A stretch of DNA of 64,000 bases, taken from the NCBI GenBank assembly GCA_043802485.1, contig JAZDKZ010000007.1, positions 50,457 through 114,456 of the forward strand, given 5' to 3'. Source of the stretch: Candidatus Aenigmatarchaeota archaeon. Lineage in GTDB: Archaea > Aenigmatarchaeota > Aenigmatarchaeia > Aenigmatarchaeales > Aenigmatarchaeaceae. The notes under the pieces are model-generated. The model ran no database searches and was not told the origin of the DNA. It saw nothing but the letters and a program-made list of their open reading frames with translations. A program made the translations under genes and the position numbers. Below, one piece after another: positions 4,692-51,600 of this stretch (the first letter of the stretch is position 1; every line of letters begins with the position of its first letter).

Positions 4692-4779
4692 GCGCCGATA
4701 GTCTAGCCTGGTAGGACATAAGCTTCCCAATTATCCAAGGAAACAGCTTAGGACCCGGGTTCAAATCCCGGTCGGCGCA
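4692..4779 (+). tRNA. tRNA-Gly(CCC) with a ~15-nt canonical intron (about 4730..4744)
   Basis: Acceptor GCGCCGA/TCGGCGC, discriminator A. Typical archaeal Gly D-arm GTAGTCTAGCCTGGTAGGAC. Anticodon stem TAAGC/GCTTA with loop TTCCCAA interrupted by ATTATCCAAGGAAAC. T-arm CCGGG-TTCAAAT-CCCGG. Confidence 0.7.
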
Positions 4780-4811
4780 CTATCATATTGATAAAAATTT
4801 CTGACATCCGA

Positions 4812-5477
4812 TTATATAGCCCCAATAGCCATCAGGTTACGACAAAAGGCGAAAATTTTATCCGTCAGGCTTAAGGTTAGAGGCTGGATGTCGTGGCTGA
4901 CATAGAGGTAGTACAGAACAACAATGGTCAAACCGATTAATTCTATGGCAGCACCTAAAGAAAATATGAACTTTTTCTTACTTACACCGTAATAAATCAA
5001 GTAGTAAATAGTTATGGCCTGCCATAAAAAGGCTACTATATATCCGATGGCGGATCTTGACAGCAGAAAACTGGAAAAGGCCGTGTTGGTCAAGATTGTA
5101 GCAAATAGCATTATAAGGTTGGCATAGTTCAAAGCAGATTTCTTAAAGTAAAGAAAGCAACCCACTGAGATAACTATACGATGCAGGCCCGCCCACATGT
5201 TCATTCCCACACCCGCACCAGCTGTTTTCGGAATAATAAAGCTGAACGAGGGTATGAAATAAAGGTCTGATATGAACATAGGAACAGTACTGGCTAGCAT
5301 TATCAACCAGAACTTGTCCTTTGTCTTGTAAAAGGCGTAAGAGAAGGCTAGGAAGGCAATGGCATCGCCTGCCAAGTAGGCTTGAGTTGCCGGTGTACGT
5401 ATCAACATGCTCCTAATGATTAGAATAAACGAGACTATCGCTACTGTGTAAACAAGCAGTCTGACCTTGTCCGCCAT
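4812..5477 (-). CDS. Polytopic integral membrane protein (about 6-7 TM), function unknown
   Basis: 221 aa, almost entirely hydrophobic helices separated by short loops. Confidence 0.5.
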   Translation of the reverse strand: MADKVRLLVYTVAIVSFILIIRSMLIRTPATQAYLAGDAIAFLAFSYAFYKTKDKFWLIMLASTVPMFISDLYFIPSFSFIIPKTAGAGVGMNMWAGLHRIVISVGCFLYFKKSALNYANLIMLFATILTNTAFSSFLLSRSAIGYIVAFLWQAITIYYLIYYGVSKKKFIFSLGAAIELIGLTIVVLYYLYVSHDIQPLTLSLTDKIFAFCRNLMAIGAI

Positions 5478-5588
5478 AGTAATATTTTTTTGTCCAGCTA
5501 TTTATCTTTTCTAGAAATATGATGCTCACAAACCATGTTCAAACCCCGCCAGCCGCACCATTTTATTAAAGAAAAGTAAAGATTTAGT

Positions 5589-6071
5589 ATGGCAGAGAAG
5601 ACGTATCTGGTGTTCCATCCCACAAGGCTGGCATTCATCAAACTGTATATTTTATTCTTAATCTTCATTGTAACAGGAGCAGCGTTGCTGCTTTCCATGT
5701 TCGGATTGCTGCCGTTTGATGTGCCGCTTCCTGAGGAATATTCACTCTATGCAGCAGCGGTTTCTATTGTCATTGGGATTGTTTTGCTGATAGTAGCGGA
5801 AATAAAGCATAGAATCGACACCTACATAATGACCAATTACAGGATAATAGAAAGACGAGGAATAGTGAGCATAAAGGAGGACTCTGTGGAATGGAATAAC
5901 ATAGCCAACTACACTTTTACGCAGAGCTTCCTGGAGAAGCTGCTGAACATAGGAACCATCAGACTGTATTCTTCGGGCGGGGTAGAGCATGAAGCAGAGG
6001 TTTTAATCAAGAAAACGCCTCACATAAAGAAAATAAGATTTCTTTTGGACAAATTGATACAGAGAGGGTAA
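5589..6071 (+). CDS. Membrane protein with bacterial-type PH domain (bPH_2 / YdbT-like, DUF304 family)
   Basis: Two N-terminal TM helices followed by ...YIMTNYRIIERRGIVSIKEDSVEWNNIANYTFTQSFLEKLLNIGTIRL, which matches the YdbS/YdbT membrane-flanked PH-like fold pattern. Confidence 0.5.
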   Translation: MAEKTYLVFHPTRLAFIKLYILFLIFIVTGAALLLSMFGLLPFDVPLPEEYSLYAAAVSIVIGIVLLIVAEIKHRIDTYIMTNYRIIERRGIVSIKEDSVEWNNIANYTFTQSFLEKLLNIGTIRLYSSGGVEHEAEVLIKKTPHIKKIRFLLDKLIQRG

Positions 6072-6076
6072 TGTCT

Positions 6077-6084
6077 TATAAATA
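6077..6084 (+). promoter_or_regulatory. Putative TATA box (TTATAAAT) about 25-32 nt upstream of tRNA-Val(GAC)
   Basis: cttataaatatt is centred about 28 nt before the mature tRNA 5' end, with an AT-rich BRE-like stretch upstream. Confidence 0.35.
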
Positions 6085-6108
6085 TTCATGTTTTAATTAA
6101 ATTAGCAA

Positions 6109-6180
6109 GGGCCCATGGTCTAGCGGTATGACGCCACCTTGACAGGGTGGAGGCCGAGAGTTCGAATCTCTCTGGGCCCA
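6109..6180 (+). tRNA. tRNA-Val(GAC), 72 nt, no intron
   Basis: Acceptor GGGCCCA/TGGGCCC, discriminator A. D-arm GTCT-AGCGGTA-TGAC. Anticodon stem CCACC/GGTGG with loop TTGACAG. Variable loop AGGCC. T-arm GAGAG-TTCGAAT-CTCTC. Confidence 0.85.
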
Positions 6181-6194
6181 CTCATAGTGTTTTG

Positions 6195-8591
6195 ATGAAA
6201 ATCTTTGCGGACTTGCATTTGCACAGCCATTACAGCAGAGCCACTTCCAACAGGATGAACATAGAGAACCTGGAGAGATACGGCAAACTGAAAGGATTAA
6301 ATCTCATAGGCACAGGAGACTTTACCCATCCGCTCTGGCTGAAAGAGCTTAAGGGAATCCTAAAAGAAGTGGACGGCTTCTACAAGTACAAGGAAAGCAG
6401 CGTCTCTTTTGTTCTTCAGGCAGAGGTCGCCATTATCTACAGGCAGGATGAAAAGTCAAGAAGGGTGCATCTTGTCCTTCTTGCGCCAAGCTTTGGTGTT
6501 GTCGACCAGGTTAACGATTTTTTATCAAAATATGGAAAGCTAGCATCAGACGGCAGGCCCATTCTTACAAAGATAGACTGCGCGGAACTGACGGAAAGGC
6601 TGATGCAGATATCAAAGGATATTATGGTTATACCCGCACACTGTCTATTACCGAACACAAAAATTATTGCCAATCCAGAAGTCAAAAGCATAGAAGATGT
6701 TAAAAGGGGGGATTTTGTATATACGCACACGGGACTGAAGAGAAAAGTAACAAAGGTCTTTTCCCATAGGTATAGAGGAAAACTGCTCAAAATCACACCC
6801 TGGTATTTTTCTGTTGAAACCCCTTCAACACCTGAACACCCTTTCCTAGCTATAAAAACCAAAAAAAACTGCTCTTGGACCAGTGGAATTTGCAAACCGT
6901 CAGAAACTCATTTGAAAAGGTGTAATTCAGAGGAGCACAAAAAGTATCATCCCGAATGGATACAAGCTAAGAATCTAGAGATTGGGGATGTTTTGGTTTA
7001 TCCAAGATTCAGAGAGAAAAACATAGATGTCGGCCATATAGCGTTTGGAGACAGAAAAATTGAATTAGATAGAGATTTCTGCAGGCTTGTTGGATATTAC
7101 CTTGCGGAAGGCTACACTCAAGGCAATGAAGCGATAACATTTACGTTCAATAAAAAAGAGAAAGGCTATGTTTTTGATGTGTGTTTTCTAATGAGAAAAA
7201 TATTCGGTTTGAAACCATCTAAAGGAAAAACAGAAAGTGATGCCATATTCTATTCCAAGGCCATAACTGAAAAATTTAAAGAGCTGTTTTATACTAGAAA
7301 GCCGTATAGGGCGTTTAACAAAAAATTGCCAGAGGACTTTATTTACCTGCCAGAAGAAAAGCAAGTCGAAATTCTCAAAGGCTGGTGGAGAGGCGACAAA
7401 GGAAGCACATCATCCAGATTATTGGCGAATCAAATGAAAATTGTCTGTTTAAGATTAGGCATAATACCATCCTTTACAATCGACACTGTGCAGTCCCATA
7501 AAGAAAGGGGCAAACATTTAATAGGGGATAGAGAAATCCGAGCAAAGCATGACAATTTCATACTTCACCGATTGAGCTTTTTTGAAGACAGACTCAACCT
7601 GCTGAAGGATCCCGCATTTAAAAAATGCGTATCAAAAACAAAGATGAGGCATGGGTGGCTGGATGGAAGGTTTATTTACATACCCATAAGAAAAATAGAC
7701 ATTGCTTTTTACGACGGCAATGTACTAAATTTAGAGGTCGAGAAAGATAATTCATACTTGACTGAATCTGCTGCTGTTCATAATTGCTGGACGCCGTGGT
7801 TCGCGCTTTTTGGCAGCAAGTCAGGCTTTGACAGGATAGAGGACTGCTTCAAGGACCAGACAAAGAACATATTCGCCTTGGAGACAGGCCTTTCAAGCGA
7901 TCCGGCAATGAACTGGCGCCTGTCCGCCTTGGACAAATACACGCTGATAAGCAACAGCGACTCTCACAGTCCCTGGCCGTCAAGGATAGGTAGGGAGGCG
8001 AATGTCTTCAATGCTGAAATGACCTACAAGGACGTGTTAGATGTTCTGAAGAAGAAGGACCCTAAAAGATTCCTTTACACGATAGAGGTCGACCCGTCAT
8101 GGGGTAAGTACCACTGGGACGGCCACAGGGCATGCAACGTCTGCATGAGCCCGAAGGAATCGCTAAAGCACAAGAACATTTGCCCTGTCTGTAAAAGGGA
8201 ACTGACCATAGGCGTTGAGCACCGCGTCGAGGAATTAGCAGACAGGGAAGATGGCTTCAGGCCTGATGGAGCGATACCATTCAAGAAGATTATACCCCTT
8301 TCTGAATTGATAGCAACAGTGTACAACACCCAATCTTTCGCGAAAAAGGTGTGGGCAGAGTCATCCAAATTATTGAACGAGTTCGGCTCAGAGTTCAAGG
8401 TCCTTTTGGAGACGCCGGAGGAGAACCTGAGAATAGTGACGCATGAGAAGATTGCCAAGCTGATAATAAAGAACCGGAACGGCGATTTGAAAATACACCC
8501 TGGCTACGACGGCGAATACGGCAAGCTTATCCTCGAAGAAGAGGGCTACATCAAACAGCCACAAAAGAGACTGGACTCTTTCACAAAATAA
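6195..8591 (+). CDS. PHP-domain nuclease, EndoQ-like (TIGR00375-like), interrupted by a 381-aa intein; the spliced host protein would be about 417 aa
   Basis: N-terminus MKIFADLHLHSHYS is the PHP-domain metal-binding signature. The C-terminal part has a zinc finger (CNVCM...CPVCK) and a size near the roughly 420-aa P. furiosus EndoQ. The ORF-track start at 6147 lies inside tRNA-Val; the first plausible ATG is 6195. Extein junctions are VIPAH|C...HN|CWTPWFALFG. Confidence 0.6.
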   Translation: MKIFADLHLHSHYSRATSNRMNIENLERYGKLKGLNLIGTGDFTHPLWLKELKGILKEVDGFYKYKESSVSFVLQAEVAIIYRQDEKSRRVHLVLLAPSFGVVDQVNDFLSKYGKLASDGRPILTKIDCAELTERLMQISKDIMVIPAHCLLPNTKIIANPEVKSIEDVKRGDFVYTHTGLKRKVTKVFSHRYRGKLLKITPWYFSVETPSTPEHPFLAIKTKKNCSWTSGICKPSETHLKRCNSEEHKKYHPEWIQAKNLEIGDVLVYPRFREKNIDVGHIAFGDRKIELDRDFCRLVGYYLAEGYTQGNEAITFTFNKKEKGYVFDVCFLMRKIFGLKPSKGKTESDAIFYSKAITEKFKELFYTRKPYRAFNKKLPEDFIYLPEEKQVEILKGWWRGDKGSTSSRLLANQMKIVCLRLGIIPSFTIDTVQSHKERGKHLIGDREIRAKHDNFILHRLSFFEDRLNLLKDPAFKKCVSKTKMRHGWLDGRFIYIPIRKIDIAFYDGNVLNLEVEKDNSYLTESAAVHNCWTPWFALFGSKSGFDRIEDCFKDQTKNIFALETGLSSDPAMNWRLSALDKYTLISNSDSHSPWPSRIGREANVFNAEMTYKDVLDVLKKKDPKRFLYTIEVDPSWGKYHWDGHRACNVCMSPKESLKHKNICPVCKRELTIGVEHRVEELADREDGFRPDGAIPFKKIIPLSELIATVYNTQSFAKKVWAESSKLLNEFGSEFKVLLETPEENLRIVTHEKIAKLIIKNRNGDLKIHPGYDGEYGKLILEEEGYIKQPQKRLDSFTK
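6642..7784 (+). mobile_element. Intein (381 aa) with LAGLIDADG homing-endonuclease domain
   Basis: Begins with Cys (CLLPNTKI...), ends ...AAVHN, followed by extein Cys. Internal DOD blocks LVGYYLAEGY and ILKGWWRGDKGS. Splicing-domain blocks flank the endonuclease domain. Confidence 0.7.
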
Positions 8592-8629: not shown

Positions 8630-9598
8630 CTATCTTCCAGAAACACTAACGCTAGCTGTTCTCTCAGCCATGTAACCGTATGTTGCGGTTACTGTGAGCT
8701 GATACGACTGCATTGTTGTCGGCGCGCTGTCAATTGTCAAATCACAGGACAGTGTTATGTCTCTTCCTGCTACCAGTTCCTGCTCGCCTTCGCAGCTTTC
8801 GAAACCGGAAAGACCAGATGCCTCTATGTCAATCTCAACTCTGTTGAGCTCTGTGTCTGCGTCCAATGACAAGTCAGGACTGCCGCTCGAATAGTCTATC
8901 GAACCAGCCTTGTATAGTGTCGATCCACCTACATTGCTAATCTTTATCTGTAGCGTGACAACGTCAGAATCCGATGCGATTATAATCGGGTCTGGAATGG
9001 CCTTTACGTACAAAGCGACAGGTCCTCCTGTTGAAGACAGGGCTGCGCTGTTAAGTGCCTTTTCAGACGCCCTTGCGGCATCAGCTTCTGCTTGTGAGTA
9101 AACCCAAACGTTTCCCGAAACAGTTGTTGAATAGTCATAGTAGACTCTACCTATGAAGATATCGTTCCTAATAGTTCCCTTTGATATCCCCGTCGGTGAT
9201 GAGAGTGTATATGTAACGGTCTGCTCTCCTGCAGGTGTTCCCCTCACAGGGTCCTCAGGATTGAGAGCCTTTGTCAATGCAGTGTAAACGCTATCAGTTG
9301 TTCCCCTACCGCTCCAGTACAAACCGTCTGACAAGTCGTCCTTGACACCAGAACCTGTAAGGTATATTATCGCGTCATCCATGTCAACTGCTGCCCCGCC
9401 CAGGTTGCTCACCGTCATCATCACTCTTCCTGATGAAGTGGTGTAAACCTCGGTCGGATCCGCAGTAAACTCTGTTATGACTAGGCCGTTACCCCCAACA
9501 ACCGTTGTCGTTGTCTGCAGCCAAGAAGACATGTCTCCTTGTATACATCCAGCTACAAGCATGGTGGATAAAACTGCCAATAAAATTGCTTTTCTCAT
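8630..9598 (-). CDS. Lipoprotein-type surface protein with CARDB-like beta-sandwich repeats (paralog of 9660..10595)
   Basis: Signal peptide plus lipobox MRKAILLAVLSTMLVAGC. Segments such as ITEFTADPTEVYTTSSGRVMMTVSNLGGAAV resemble CARDB/DUF11 Ig-like repeats. About 45% identity to the adjacent paralog over the full length (shared NDIFIGRVYYDYST...NVWVYS...EADAARA and C-terminal ELVAGRD..C motifs). Confidence 0.5.
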   Translation of the reverse strand: MRKAILLAVLSTMLVAGCIQGDMSSWLQTTTTVVGGNGLVITEFTADPTEVYTTSSGRVMMTVSNLGGAAVDMDDAIIYLTGSGVKDDLSDGLYWSGRGTTDSVYTALTKALNPEDPVRGTPAGEQTVTYTLSSPTGISKGTIRNDIFIGRVYYDYSTTVSGNVWVYSQAEADAARASEKALNSAALSSTGGPVALYVKAIPDPIIIASDSDVVTLQIKISNVGGSTLYKAGSIDYSSGSPDLSLDADTELNRVEIDIEASGLSGFESCEGEQELVAGRDITLSCDLTIDSAPTTMQSYQLTVTATYGYMAERTASVSVSGR

Positions 9599-9659: not shown

Positions 9660-10595
9660 CTATCTGCCCTGGACTGTCACGGAAGCGGTCCTTTCGGTGT
9701 AGTAGCCATAGTCTACGGTGACATCAAACTGGAACGACTGGAAGGTTGATACATCAGTAGTGACGTCTATATCACAGACTATTGTCATGTCCCTTCCTGC
9801 TACCAGTTCCTGGTCATCCAGACTCTGGCATTCTGAATCCAGAGTCAAACCAGACCCAACATCTATGCTCACATCCACCCTGTTTATTTCTTCCATGGTT
9901 AATGTGACATCACTACTGTCACTACCATAGGGTATGGCACCTGGCGAATATATCGTACCTGACGCGAGGTTGTTTATTTTTATAAAAACAGTGAACGTGT
10001 TGCTTCCCTCATATACTATCAGGGGTGTGGGAGAGACTGAAATGCTTAGACCAACAGGACCCTTGGTATAAGTGAATGAAGGCGTGTACAACTGCCTTCC
10101 TGCTGCCCTTGCGGCATCAGCCTCAGACTCGGAATACACCCAAACGTTCCCGTTTGCGCTAGTAGAATAATCATGATAGACTCTTGCTATGAAAATGTCG
10201 TTTCTTGTCTGTCCTGGGTCCAAATCAGGCGCAGTCAGAGTTTCTGAGTACCTGTAAGTAGACGGTGGGACACCTCTCACAACGTCCTCAGCCCTCATTT
10301 CCTTGTCAAGGGTCTCGAAATCGGCCACCGAACCAAACCAGTCAACAAAGTTCGAACCTGTGACATATATCTTTGAACCACCGTCAGCAACGGTTGTTCC
10401 TCCGCGGTTTTCAATTTCCATGACAAGCCTGACAGAACTGCCACTGAATATGGATGTTGGCTCTGCCGTGAAGCTGATAATCTCCAGCCCGCTGCCGCCT
10501 GTTAAAGAACTACCGCCCAGATTTCCCATGTCAATGTCTACACAACCGGCTACAAGAAGCACTGATAAAACTGATAGCAAAATTTTTGATTTCAT
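9660..10595 (-). CDS. Lipoprotein-type surface protein, tandem paralog of 8630..9598
   Basis: MKSKILLSVLSVLLVAGC lipobox and the same domain layout; conserved C-terminal DQELVAGRDMTIVCDIDV. Confidence 0.5.
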   Translation of the reverse strand: MKSKILLSVLSVLLVAGCVDIDMGNLGGSSLTGGSGLEIISFTAEPTSIFSGSSVRLVMEIENRGGTTVADGGSKIYVTGSNFVDWFGSVADFETLDKEMRAEDVVRGVPPSTYRYSETLTAPDLDPGQTRNDIFIARVYHDYSTSANGNVWVYSESEADAARAAGRQLYTPSFTYTKGPVGLSISVSPTPLIVYEGSNTFTVFIKINNLASGTIYSPGAIPYGSDSSDVTLTMEEINRVDVSIDVGSGLTLDSECQSLDDQELVAGRDMTIVCDIDVTTDVSTFQSFQFDVTVDYGYYTERTASVTVQGR

Positions 10596-19020: not shown

Positions 19021-19123
19021 TGGACCGGAGGGGACTCGAACCCCTAACCTCTTATGGCCCTGAAGGGTTTCCATTTTGGTTTAGATTGCCAAGGAAGCGA
19101 TCTTCCAGTTGATCTACCGGCCC
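19021..19123 (-). tRNA. tRNA-Ala(GGC) with two putative introns (about 13 nt at 19073..19085 after the anticodon loop; about 17 nt at 19052..19068 inside the 3' strand of the anticodon stem)
   Basis: Reverse complement: GGGCCGG-TA-GATC-AACTGGAA-GATC-G-CTTCC-TTGGCAA-[TCTAAACCAAAAT]-GGAA-[ACCCTTCAGGGCCATAA]-G-AGGTT-AGGGG-TTCGAGT-CCCCT-CCGGTCC-A. G3:U70 Ala identity pair is present. The spliced product is nearly identical to Methanocaldococcus-type tRNA-Ala (GUAGAUCA..GAUCGCUUCCUU.GCAAGGAAGAGG). Confidence 0.55.
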
Positions 19124-19162: not shown

Positions 19163-19272
19163 TGGGCCGGGCAGGACTCGAACCTGCGATATTCACCGTG
19201 TAAGGGTGACGTATGCCATTGTTCCAAGGGCTCAACCCTAAGAAACAATCATAGCCGCTAGACCACCGGCCC
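19163..19272 (-). tRNA. tRNA-Val(UAC) with a 37-nt non-canonical intron between D-arm and anticodon stem (about 19210..19246)
   Basis: Reverse complement: GGGCCGG-TG-GTCT-AGCGGCTA-TGAT-T-[GTTTCTTAGGGTTGAGCCCTTGGAACAATGGCATACG]-TCACC-CTTACAC-GGTGA-ATATC-GCAGG-TTCGAGT-CCTGC-CCGGCCC-A. D-arm is almost identical to tRNA-Val(GAC) at 6109. Textbook anticodon stem-loop with anticodon TAC. Mature length 73. Confidence 0.5.
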
Positions 19273-19390: not shown

Positions 19391-19530
19391 GTGGGCGAGG
19401 GGAGATTCGAATTCGGTAGCTCTCATCCACAAGAGCTTCTCCCGACCTCCAGTTTCTACAGAACACAGCCAACAAAAAGGACTGACGTCCTCTTATAAGA
19501 CTGGCGCTCTGCCAGGCTAAGCTACCCGCC
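19391..19530 (-). tRNA. tRNA-Ile(UAU) with two introns (39 nt canonical at about 19454..19492; 27 nt between T-stem and T-loop at about 19411..19437)
   Basis: Reverse complement: GGGCGGG-TA-GCTT-AGCCTGGCA-GAGC-G-CCAGT-CTTATA-[39 nt]-A-ACTGG-AGGTC-GGGAG-[AAGCTCTTGTGGATGAGAGCTACCGAA]-TTCGAAT-CTCCC-CTCGCCC-A. Anticodon loop CTTATAA fits the CTNNNAA pattern. Mature length 74. Confidence 0.5.
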
Positions 19531-19557
19531 CGTTAAGGATTTATTTTGTCTTCAGCA

Positions 19558-51492: not shown

Positions 51493-51600
51493 CGCTTCCG
51501 ACGGGATTTGAACCCGCGACCCCTTGATTTCTTCATCTTGAATCAGATCTTCTAAGTTATTTAGAAGTCAAGTGCTCTATCCAAACTGAGCTACGGAAGC
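51493..51600 (-). tRNA. tRNA-Arg(UCU) with a 33-nt canonical intron (about 51529..51561)
   Basis: Reverse complement: GCTTCCG-TA-GCTC-AGTTTGGATA-GAGC-A-CTTGA-CTTCTA-[33 nt]-A-TCAAG-GGGTC-GCGGG-TTCAAAT-CCCGT-CGGAAGC-G. The intron contains a second copy of TCAAG, so an alternative two-intron parse exists. Confidence 0.6.

Follow-up and report, generated by a model that had tools for sequence, protein, structure and literature searches.

What is the 381-residue segment that divides a predicted nuclease of a Candidatus Aenigmatarchaeota archaeon into two parts, and what becomes of the nuclease while the segment is present? The stretch of DNA analyzed, here called the window, comprises 64,000 nt of a metagenome-assembled genome (MAG) of this archaeon, and all coordinates are positions in the window unless another locus is named. 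The gene in question, endoQ, extends on the plus strand from the ATG at 6195 to the stop codon at 8589-8591 and encodes a precursor of 798 amino acids (aa), which is recorded at NCBI as a 'hypothetical protein' (P0001, 100% identity, Candidatus Aenigmatarchaeota MAG). To judge from its sequence, the host is a PHP-domain nuclease of the Endonuclease Q (EndoQ)/TIGR00375 family, and the segment, inserted directly after a zinc-ligand histidine, is an intein with an embedded LAGLIDADG homing endonuclease. The public label would accordingly change to that of an intein-interrupted Endonuclease Q, which is expected to mature into an ordinary repair nuclease of 417 aa. That this observation lies far beyond chance is confirmed by the alignment of the extein with EndoQ (E-value 2.6e-62), by the match of the predicted fold of the insert to solved inteins (E-value 3e-18) and by the presence of the same architecture in at least 120 database proteins.

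The host gene and the point of insertion

The insert occupies positions 6642-7784 (plus strand) and measures 1143 bp, which are translated in frame into exactly 381 aa; its removal leaves an extein of exactly 417 aa. The N-terminal part of the precursor ends in ...DIMVIPAH, and the Cys codon TGT at 6642-6644 starts the insert. The insert ends in ...SAAVHN at 7784 and is followed by Cys-Trp-Thr-Pro-Trp from 7785, the codon of the residue after the insert (Cys+1) being 7785-7787. A preliminary description of this DNA had proposed a 381-aa element, beginning with Cys, ending in His-Asn and followed by Cys, that lies after a VIPAH motif in a 798-aa reading frame with a remainder of about 417 aa; translation reproduced all of these coordinates, counts and residues.

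The extein-only protein aligned with Endonuclease Q of Pyrococcus furiosus (PfuEndoQ; PF1551; structures 5zb8 and 7k30-7k33) in a single colinear alignment that crosses the junction and joins extein residues 3-402 to PfuEndoQ residues 3-385. At the junction itself the window reads 'dimvipahcwtpwfalf' and PfuEndoQ 'dILIGPAHAFTPWTSLY'. The N-extein (6195-6641, plus strand, aa 1-149) forms the first half of the PHP domain, as assessed by alignment to 5zb8/7k30 and a residue check, and contributes the metal ligands or essential residues H8, H10, E77, H92, R121 and H149. The C-extein (7785-8591, plus strand, aa 531-798 and the stop codon), assessed by alignment to PfuEndoQ and a residue check, contributes D589 and H591, which correspond to PfuEndoQ D193 and H195, and a four-Cys zinc finger (C647, C650, C663 and C666), beyond which the alignment extends into the C-terminal helical domain up to PfuEndoQ residue 385. 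In total, PfuEndoQ H8, H10, E76, H84, R114, H139, D193 and H195 all have counterparts in the extein, as have T142, W144 and the pocket residues. The catalytic and essential residues, the counterparts of T142 and W144 and the zinc-finger cysteines are invariant or nearly so in an alignment of 102 sequences. PfuEndoQ differs in being free of the intein and in carrying Ala at the position of Cys+1.

Regarding the family profile, TIGR00375 (NCBIfam) matched the extein with 228.1 bits (E-value 2e-67) and the precursor with 275.5 bits (E-value 8e-82); both scores lie below the curated cutoff of 326.6, but the E-values still indicate clear homology. When the extein part of a predicted structure was compared with the PDB using Foldseek, PfuEndoQ 5zb8 was found with an E-value of 4e-27 and a template modelling (TM) score, normalized to the target, of 0.87-0.89. 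The earlier assignment of the host to PHP-domain nucleases resembling EndoQ was thus upheld by profile E-values, alignment and fold.

The location of the insert gains its meaning from the work on PfuEndoQ, in which His8, His10, Glu76, His84, His139 and Asp193 bind two catalytic Zn2+ ions and the mutation H139A almost abolishes activity (PMC5961232). The predicted pocket for the flipped-out deaminated base has His139 and Thr142 in its wall, and for Trp144 an insertion into the DNA duplex has been proposed (PMC5961232). In the window, the residue immediately before the insert (H149) corresponds to His139, Cys+1 replaces Ala140, and the counterparts of Thr142 and Trp144 come next, so that the active-site location suggested in the preliminary description proved correct: the residue at position -1 is the equivalent of a Zn2+ ligand.

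The start of endoQ was placed at the ATG at 6195, although a program-made list of reading frames gave a longer one of 814 aa from a GTG at 6147. The GTG was rejected because it lies inside the gene for tRNA-Val (GAC) at 6109-6181 (plus strand; Rfam tRNA 67.2 bits; ARAGORN tRNA-Val gac) and because PfuEndoQ aligns from residue 3 onwards with the protein that starts at the ATG. The tRNA-Val (GAC) gene ends 13 nt upstream of the ATG, and a stretch homologous to it is kept at 2911-2988 of a related locus, L002, which is introduced below. An antisense reading frame at 6437-6895 was without support and is regarded as spurious.

Anatomy, conservation and predicted fold of the insert

The splicing and endonuclease motifs of the insert were located by translation, and their conservation was counted in 119 homologous inteins taken from the database matches. 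Block A (CLLPNTKIIANPE, 6642-6680, plus strand, as are all following motifs) starts with Cys1, the first nucleophile. Block B (TPSTPEHPFLAI, 6819-6854) contains the TxxH motif T63-P-E-H66, and blocks F and G (GNVLNLEVEKDNSYLTE and SAAVHN, 7716-7784) end in the penultimate His380 and the terminal Asn381. Cys1, Thr63, His66, His380 and Asn381 are each kept in 119/119 of the homologs. The two dodecapeptide motifs mentioned in the preliminary description were found about 100 aa apart at intein aa 146-158 (FCRLVGYYLAEGY, 7077-7115) and aa 243-255 (EILKGWWRGDKGS, 7368-7406), each closed by an acidic residue; this pair, E156 and D252, putatively the catalytic acids, is kept in all but one of the homologs (118/119).

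The whole precursor was modeled with AlphaFold2 (AF2) using 102 homologs. The mean predicted local distance difference test (pLDDT) score was 90.8, and only residues 148-150 and 531-536, i.e. the two splice junctions, and the C-terminal tail were of low confidence. Foldseek searches of the PDB with the insert yielded TliVMA (E-value 3e-18), PhoVMA, PI-SceI, PI-PkoII and PI-PfuI, with E-values ranging to 5e-10, and further the free LAGLIDADG enzyme I-DmoI (E-value 1e-3, target TM 0.55-0.60) and mini-inteins. The solved LAGLIDADG inteins (TliVMA/PhoVMA 7qsu, 7qss and 7qst; PI-SceI 1vde and 1lws; PI-PkoII 2cw7; PI-PfuI 1dq3) share with the modeled insert the Hint domain and the two-motif LAGLIDADG endonuclease, at target TM scores of 0.43-0.65, but differ from it in sequence, of which only 11-14% is identical, and in their hosts (V-ATPase and DNA polymerase). 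The model thus makes a strong case for a predicted Hint plus LAGLIDADG fold, and together with the splicing residues and profile matches it bears out the earlier identification of the insert as a LAGLIDADG intein. Other inteins within the window were not found by tblastn and a motif scan.

The intein lineage of the window carries an 18-aa Cys-rich insert after block B (intein aa 77-94, CSWTSGICKPSETHLKRC, 6870-6923) with C77, C84, H90 and C94 as candidate ligands. The spacing C-x6-C-x3-C-x5-C occurs in 76/119 of the homologous inteins, and a further form, CCHC, in which a His a few residues later replaces the third Cys, occurs in 35/119 including the window. Such an exchange of Cys for His is typical of zinc sites, and the insert is a putative zinc knuckle. 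Its position is the one at which PI-SceI has its DNA-recognition region, which makes a role in binding of the target DNA plausible by analogy. We know of no counterpart of this Cys/His-rich segment in the solved intein structures named above. C147 was considered as a fifth metal ligand but not adopted: in spite of 97% conservation, three homologs have Trp or Tyr in its place, and it looks like a packing residue.

Occurrence of the intein and its empty site

Scanning one genome per species gave four loci (L001-L004). L002, in another Candidatus Aenigmatarchaeota MAG, encodes an EndoQ of the 417-aa type that is 80.8% identical to the extein of the window, and its site is empty (...VIPAH/VWTPWYGLFGS..., the slash marking the point of insertion here and below; DNA ATCGCTGTTATACCCGCGCATGTGTGGACGCCATGGTACGG). 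The window and L002 are syntenic over about 10 kb, and the blastn alignment between them stops at 6640 and resumes at 7788 (L002 3446/3451), a clean presence/absence difference of 1143 bp. The codon at +1 is GTG (Val) in the empty allele of L002 versus TGC (the obligatory Cys) in the occupied allele of the window. Relatives lacking the insert, the existence of which had been posed as a check in the preliminary description, are thus at hand in the syntenic L002 and in PfuEndoQ, both colinear with the extein across the junction. Such an occupied/empty pair in two syntenic DPANN genomes constitutes a ready-made homing site for intein biology. Regarding the other loci, L001 (a Methanosarcinales MAG) has an intein of 399 aa at the identical site, L003 (Desulfotignum) is without an intein, and L004 (Woesearchaeota) is a SufB with an intein 28% identical to that of the window.

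The occupied form is common. Of the proteins matched by the precursor, the 120 best (47-74% identity, lengths of about 770-1340 aa) all have an intein at the same site, with the pattern C1...HN/C[WM]TPW, and in public data inteins of this kind at this position number in the hundreds. The named hosts among the 120 best are Aenigmatarchaeota, Woesearchaeota, Micrarchaeota, Nanoarchaeota and one Njordarchaeales MAG, as well as Parcubacteria, Paceibacterota and Omnitrophota; DPANN archaea, bacteria of the candidate phyla radiation (CPR) and Omnitrophota have the intein at this site in common. The suspicion in the preliminary description that inteins might be unusual in this host family was not borne out.

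The intein of the window is a further example of an already known kind, and the general view of inteins is unchanged by it. P0075, a homolog with 48% identity across 99% of the query, was named 'Mja hyp1 intein' by its depositor, and Pfam PF27218, precomputed on the extein of P0002 and on nearly all matches, is MJ0043_C. The TIGR00375 profile itself matches intein aa 240-380, i.e. the last 140 residues, with its positions 2-134 (43.7 bits, E-value 2e-11), the alignment continuing into the C-extein at about profile position 135, and the precursor outscores the spliced protein; a seed member, probably MJ0043, with a homologous intein at this very point would account for such behavior, and intein sequence of that member is apparently part of the model. 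MJ0043 of Methanocaldococcus jannaschii (Swiss-Prot Q60348), the founding member of the EndoQ family, harbors the long-known Mja Hyp-1 intein, which has had an entry in InBase from the late 1990s onwards and is 'Mja hyp1 intein' in Swiss-Prot. The PF27218 name indicates the same host family, and the hosts differ in that Mja Hyp-1 belongs to the Methanococcales and the intein described here to a DPANN archaeon; for a shared insertion site the signs are indirect and consist of the name of P0075 and the behavior of TIGR00375.

Bacterial DNA polymerase III alpha can likewise contain inteins in its PHP domain (Novikova et al. 2016, PMC4760082), a further case of inteins in the PHP fold of a protein of DNA metabolism, but the host protein and the insertion points are unrelated; the main text of that paper makes no mention of EndoQ or MJ0043. 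In the literature library searched, no paper linking EndoQ with inteins was found. A scan of viral contigs for EndoQ yielded only one partial EndoQ C-terminus at the end of a contig.

An exhaustive search with the extein gave 3381 family representatives, and the best 150 of these were classified into 118 EndoQ-UvrD helicase fusions, 20 plain EndoQ proteins and 12 intein-bearing proteins. The C-terminal extension present in 118/150 was identified as a UvrD/REP helicase in the three that were checked (P0126, P0138 and P0143). Among the 12 intein-bearing representatives five insertion sites were distinguished. Site a, after His139, is that of the window intein; site b (ETGLS/C; P0130) directly follows the lesion-pocket residues 167-170; site c (SDAH/C; P0123, P0139, P0192 and P0254) lies after His195; site d (EVPP/C; P0122) lies before the GKYH motif; and site e (P0121) falls within the second CPxC of the zinc finger. 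P0139 contains two inteins, and the last residue of the site-d intein of P0122 is apparently Gln, not Asn. The nearest inteins outside EndoQ are 28-33% identical and reside in Fe-S proteins: SufB, NifU/IscU-like proteins (PF01592) and 4Fe-4S ferredoxin-domain proteins (PF00037). These non-EndoQ relatives are found at L004 2302-4866 (SufB) and in P0294-P0300; the Cys-rich insert is absent from the SufB intein of L004, the only one of them examined for it. Specialists may take an interest in the putative zinc knuckle, in the invasion of EndoQ at several sites and in the spread of the intein over DPANN, CPR and Omnitrophota.

The relationships of inteins and exteins may reflect movement. The exteins of P0002 and P0003 are 70% and 69% identical to that of the window, less than the 80.8% of L002, whereas their inteins are 78% and 73% identical, above the identities of their own exteins. 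That the intein of P0002 is more alike than its extein, and that the closest extein (L002) is without an intein, together fit mobility. In the comparison of the window intein with L005, the gene of P0002 with the closest intein, the ratio of nonsynonymous to synonymous substitution rates (dN/dS) was 0.067 for the intein as a whole and 0.047 for its endonuclease, i.e. purifying selection, although with a dS of about 1.8, near saturation, these ratios are rough; both dN and dS are lower in the intein than in the exteins. Both the splicing and the endonuclease function look maintained on these figures, and the sequence comparisons fit an intein that has been under selection for both activities and has moved between lineages; they do not fit a decaying relic.

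Proposed mechanism, competing readings and surroundings

We consider it probable that the insert is a canonical class-1 intein with a two-motif LAGLIDADG homing endonuclease that follows the standard course of splicing and homing in endoQ. In the 798-aa precursor, once translated, the intein would split the metal site of the PHP domain as well as the neighboring lesion pocket for as long as it is present. Cys1 would undergo an N-S acyl shift, Cys+1 would attack the resulting thioester, and Asn381 would cyclize with the help of His380 and of T63 and H66 of block B. A final S-N shift would leave a normal peptide bond (...VIPAH-CWTPW...) and a 417-aa EndoQ with every known catalytic residue. The freed intein would then cut intein-less endoQ alleles site-specifically, at a target of approximately ...GTTATACCCGCGCAT/GTGTGGACGCCATGG..., and the cleavage would lead to gene conversion by which the intein is copied in, the codon of Cys+1 included.

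The near saturation of dS is one of several points that weigh against this account. The curated Pfam cutoffs were missed, so that the profile evidence alone is sub-threshold: Intein_splicing matched the intein with an E-value of 1.3e-6 at 28.8 bits (cutoff 35.8) and LAGLIDADG_3 matched aa 255-292 at 19.4 bits (cutoff 22.5). TIGR01443 (intein_Cterm), searched with the full protein, lies just above its cutoff (16.5 versus 15.6 bits), intein-containing profile models of Tes and PolD also match the insert, and PI-PkoII matches it in sequence with an E-value of 5e-5. Alignment to intein profiles, as proposed in the preliminary description, thus yielded matches, two of them below the curated Pfam cutoffs, and the profile and sequence evidence for an intein is positive but modest. 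The guanine plus cytosine (G+C) content of the intein is 37.6% as compared with 45-49% in the exteins of the window, but it was rejected as proof of recent transfer, since L005 has the same offset (32.4% versus 40.5%; the inteins are 8-12 points lower); the offset therefore reflects the composition of the intein lineage and not necessarily a recent arrival. A co-conversion tract is not claimed either: the candidate signal, 87% versus 80% identity in a single span of 30 aa, amounts to about two residues in 30, and the DNA flanks are no closer to L005 than to L002.

The alternative that survives best, although we hold it to be unlikely, is an intein that splices but whose endonuclease is inactive on the available targets, a fixed and vertically inherited passenger that persists because its loss requires a precise deletion. 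With the site occupied in all 120 best matches, these communities may offer few empty targets, and the weak correlation (r = 0.39) of extein and intein identities, which are of similar size (54% versus 51%), is compatible with long co-residence. Against this stand the retention of E156 and D252 in 118/119, the dN/dS of about 0.05 in the endonuclease, the empty sites in the close relative L002 and in many members of the family, and the similarity of the window and P0002 inteins, which exceeds that of the exteins.

Considerably more doubtful is the idea that EndoQ is a hot spot in which inteins at five catalytic or structural sites keep the nuclease inactive until splicing, and that the conserved CCCC/CCHC knuckle, beside a Cys1/Cys+1 pair on either side of a Zn ligand, makes the splicing, and with it the repair activity, responsive to zinc or redox state. 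In a weaker version of the idea, the knuckle would be a zinc-dependent module by which a LAGLIDADG intein recognizes DNA, one not described before. A shade less credible still is the co-option of the window intein as a post-translational switch, by which the splicing of EndoQ, and through it the activity of the enzyme, would be conditional on, e.g., Zn2+, redox state or DNA damage. Insertion at the metal site, where Cys1 and Cys+1 flank a Zn ligand, the conserved CCCC/CCHC motif within the intein and the inteins at five functional sites of EndoQ would suit a switch, and conditional splicing has been documented for inteins of other repair proteins, e.g. RadA of P. horikoshii (PMC4513877). Selfish inteins, however, generally sit in conserved catalytic sites, because the DNA there varies little and a loss that is not precise would destroy the gene, and the closest relative (L002) manages without an intein.

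That the 381-aa segment belongs natively to this EndoQ lineage as an accessory domain that does not splice, with the 798-aa protein as the functional form, is hardly credible at all: AF2 builds an EndoQ-like fold from the extein halves despite the insert (TM 0.87 to 5zb8), but the splicing residues are invariant in 119/119, the predicted fold is Hint plus LAGLIDADG, the insert parts a Zn ligand from the next active-site strand, and the intein-free alleles of L002 and PfuEndoQ, colinear across the junction, led to the rejection of this reading.

Regarding the surroundings of endoQ, two tandem paralogous genes lie downstream at 8630-9598 and 9660-10595 (both minus strand); their proteins of about 310-320 aa are without a match in Pfam and have an N-terminus (...LVAGC...) like that of a lipoprotein. 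L002 has one copy in this position and L005 four genes of similar size in a row. Upstream, the genes for tRNA-Gly and tRNA-Val enclose a short variable interval, 4780-6107 in the window and 2277-2911 in L002, which holds a 221-aa membrane protein (minus strand) and a bPH_2-domain protein (plus strand) in the window and a different reading frame of 203 aa in L002. Rfam tRNA matches were further obtained at 19021-19123, 19163-19233, 19392-19531 and 51493-51600 (minus strand) and at 2659-2745 and 4692-4780 (plus strand). Several of these, with 103, 140 and 108 nt, far exceed a length of 71 nt and escaped ARAGORN; the over-long matches are probably intron-containing archaeal tRNAs. The tRNA-Arg (87 nt) and tRNA-Gly (89 nt) genes are also long.

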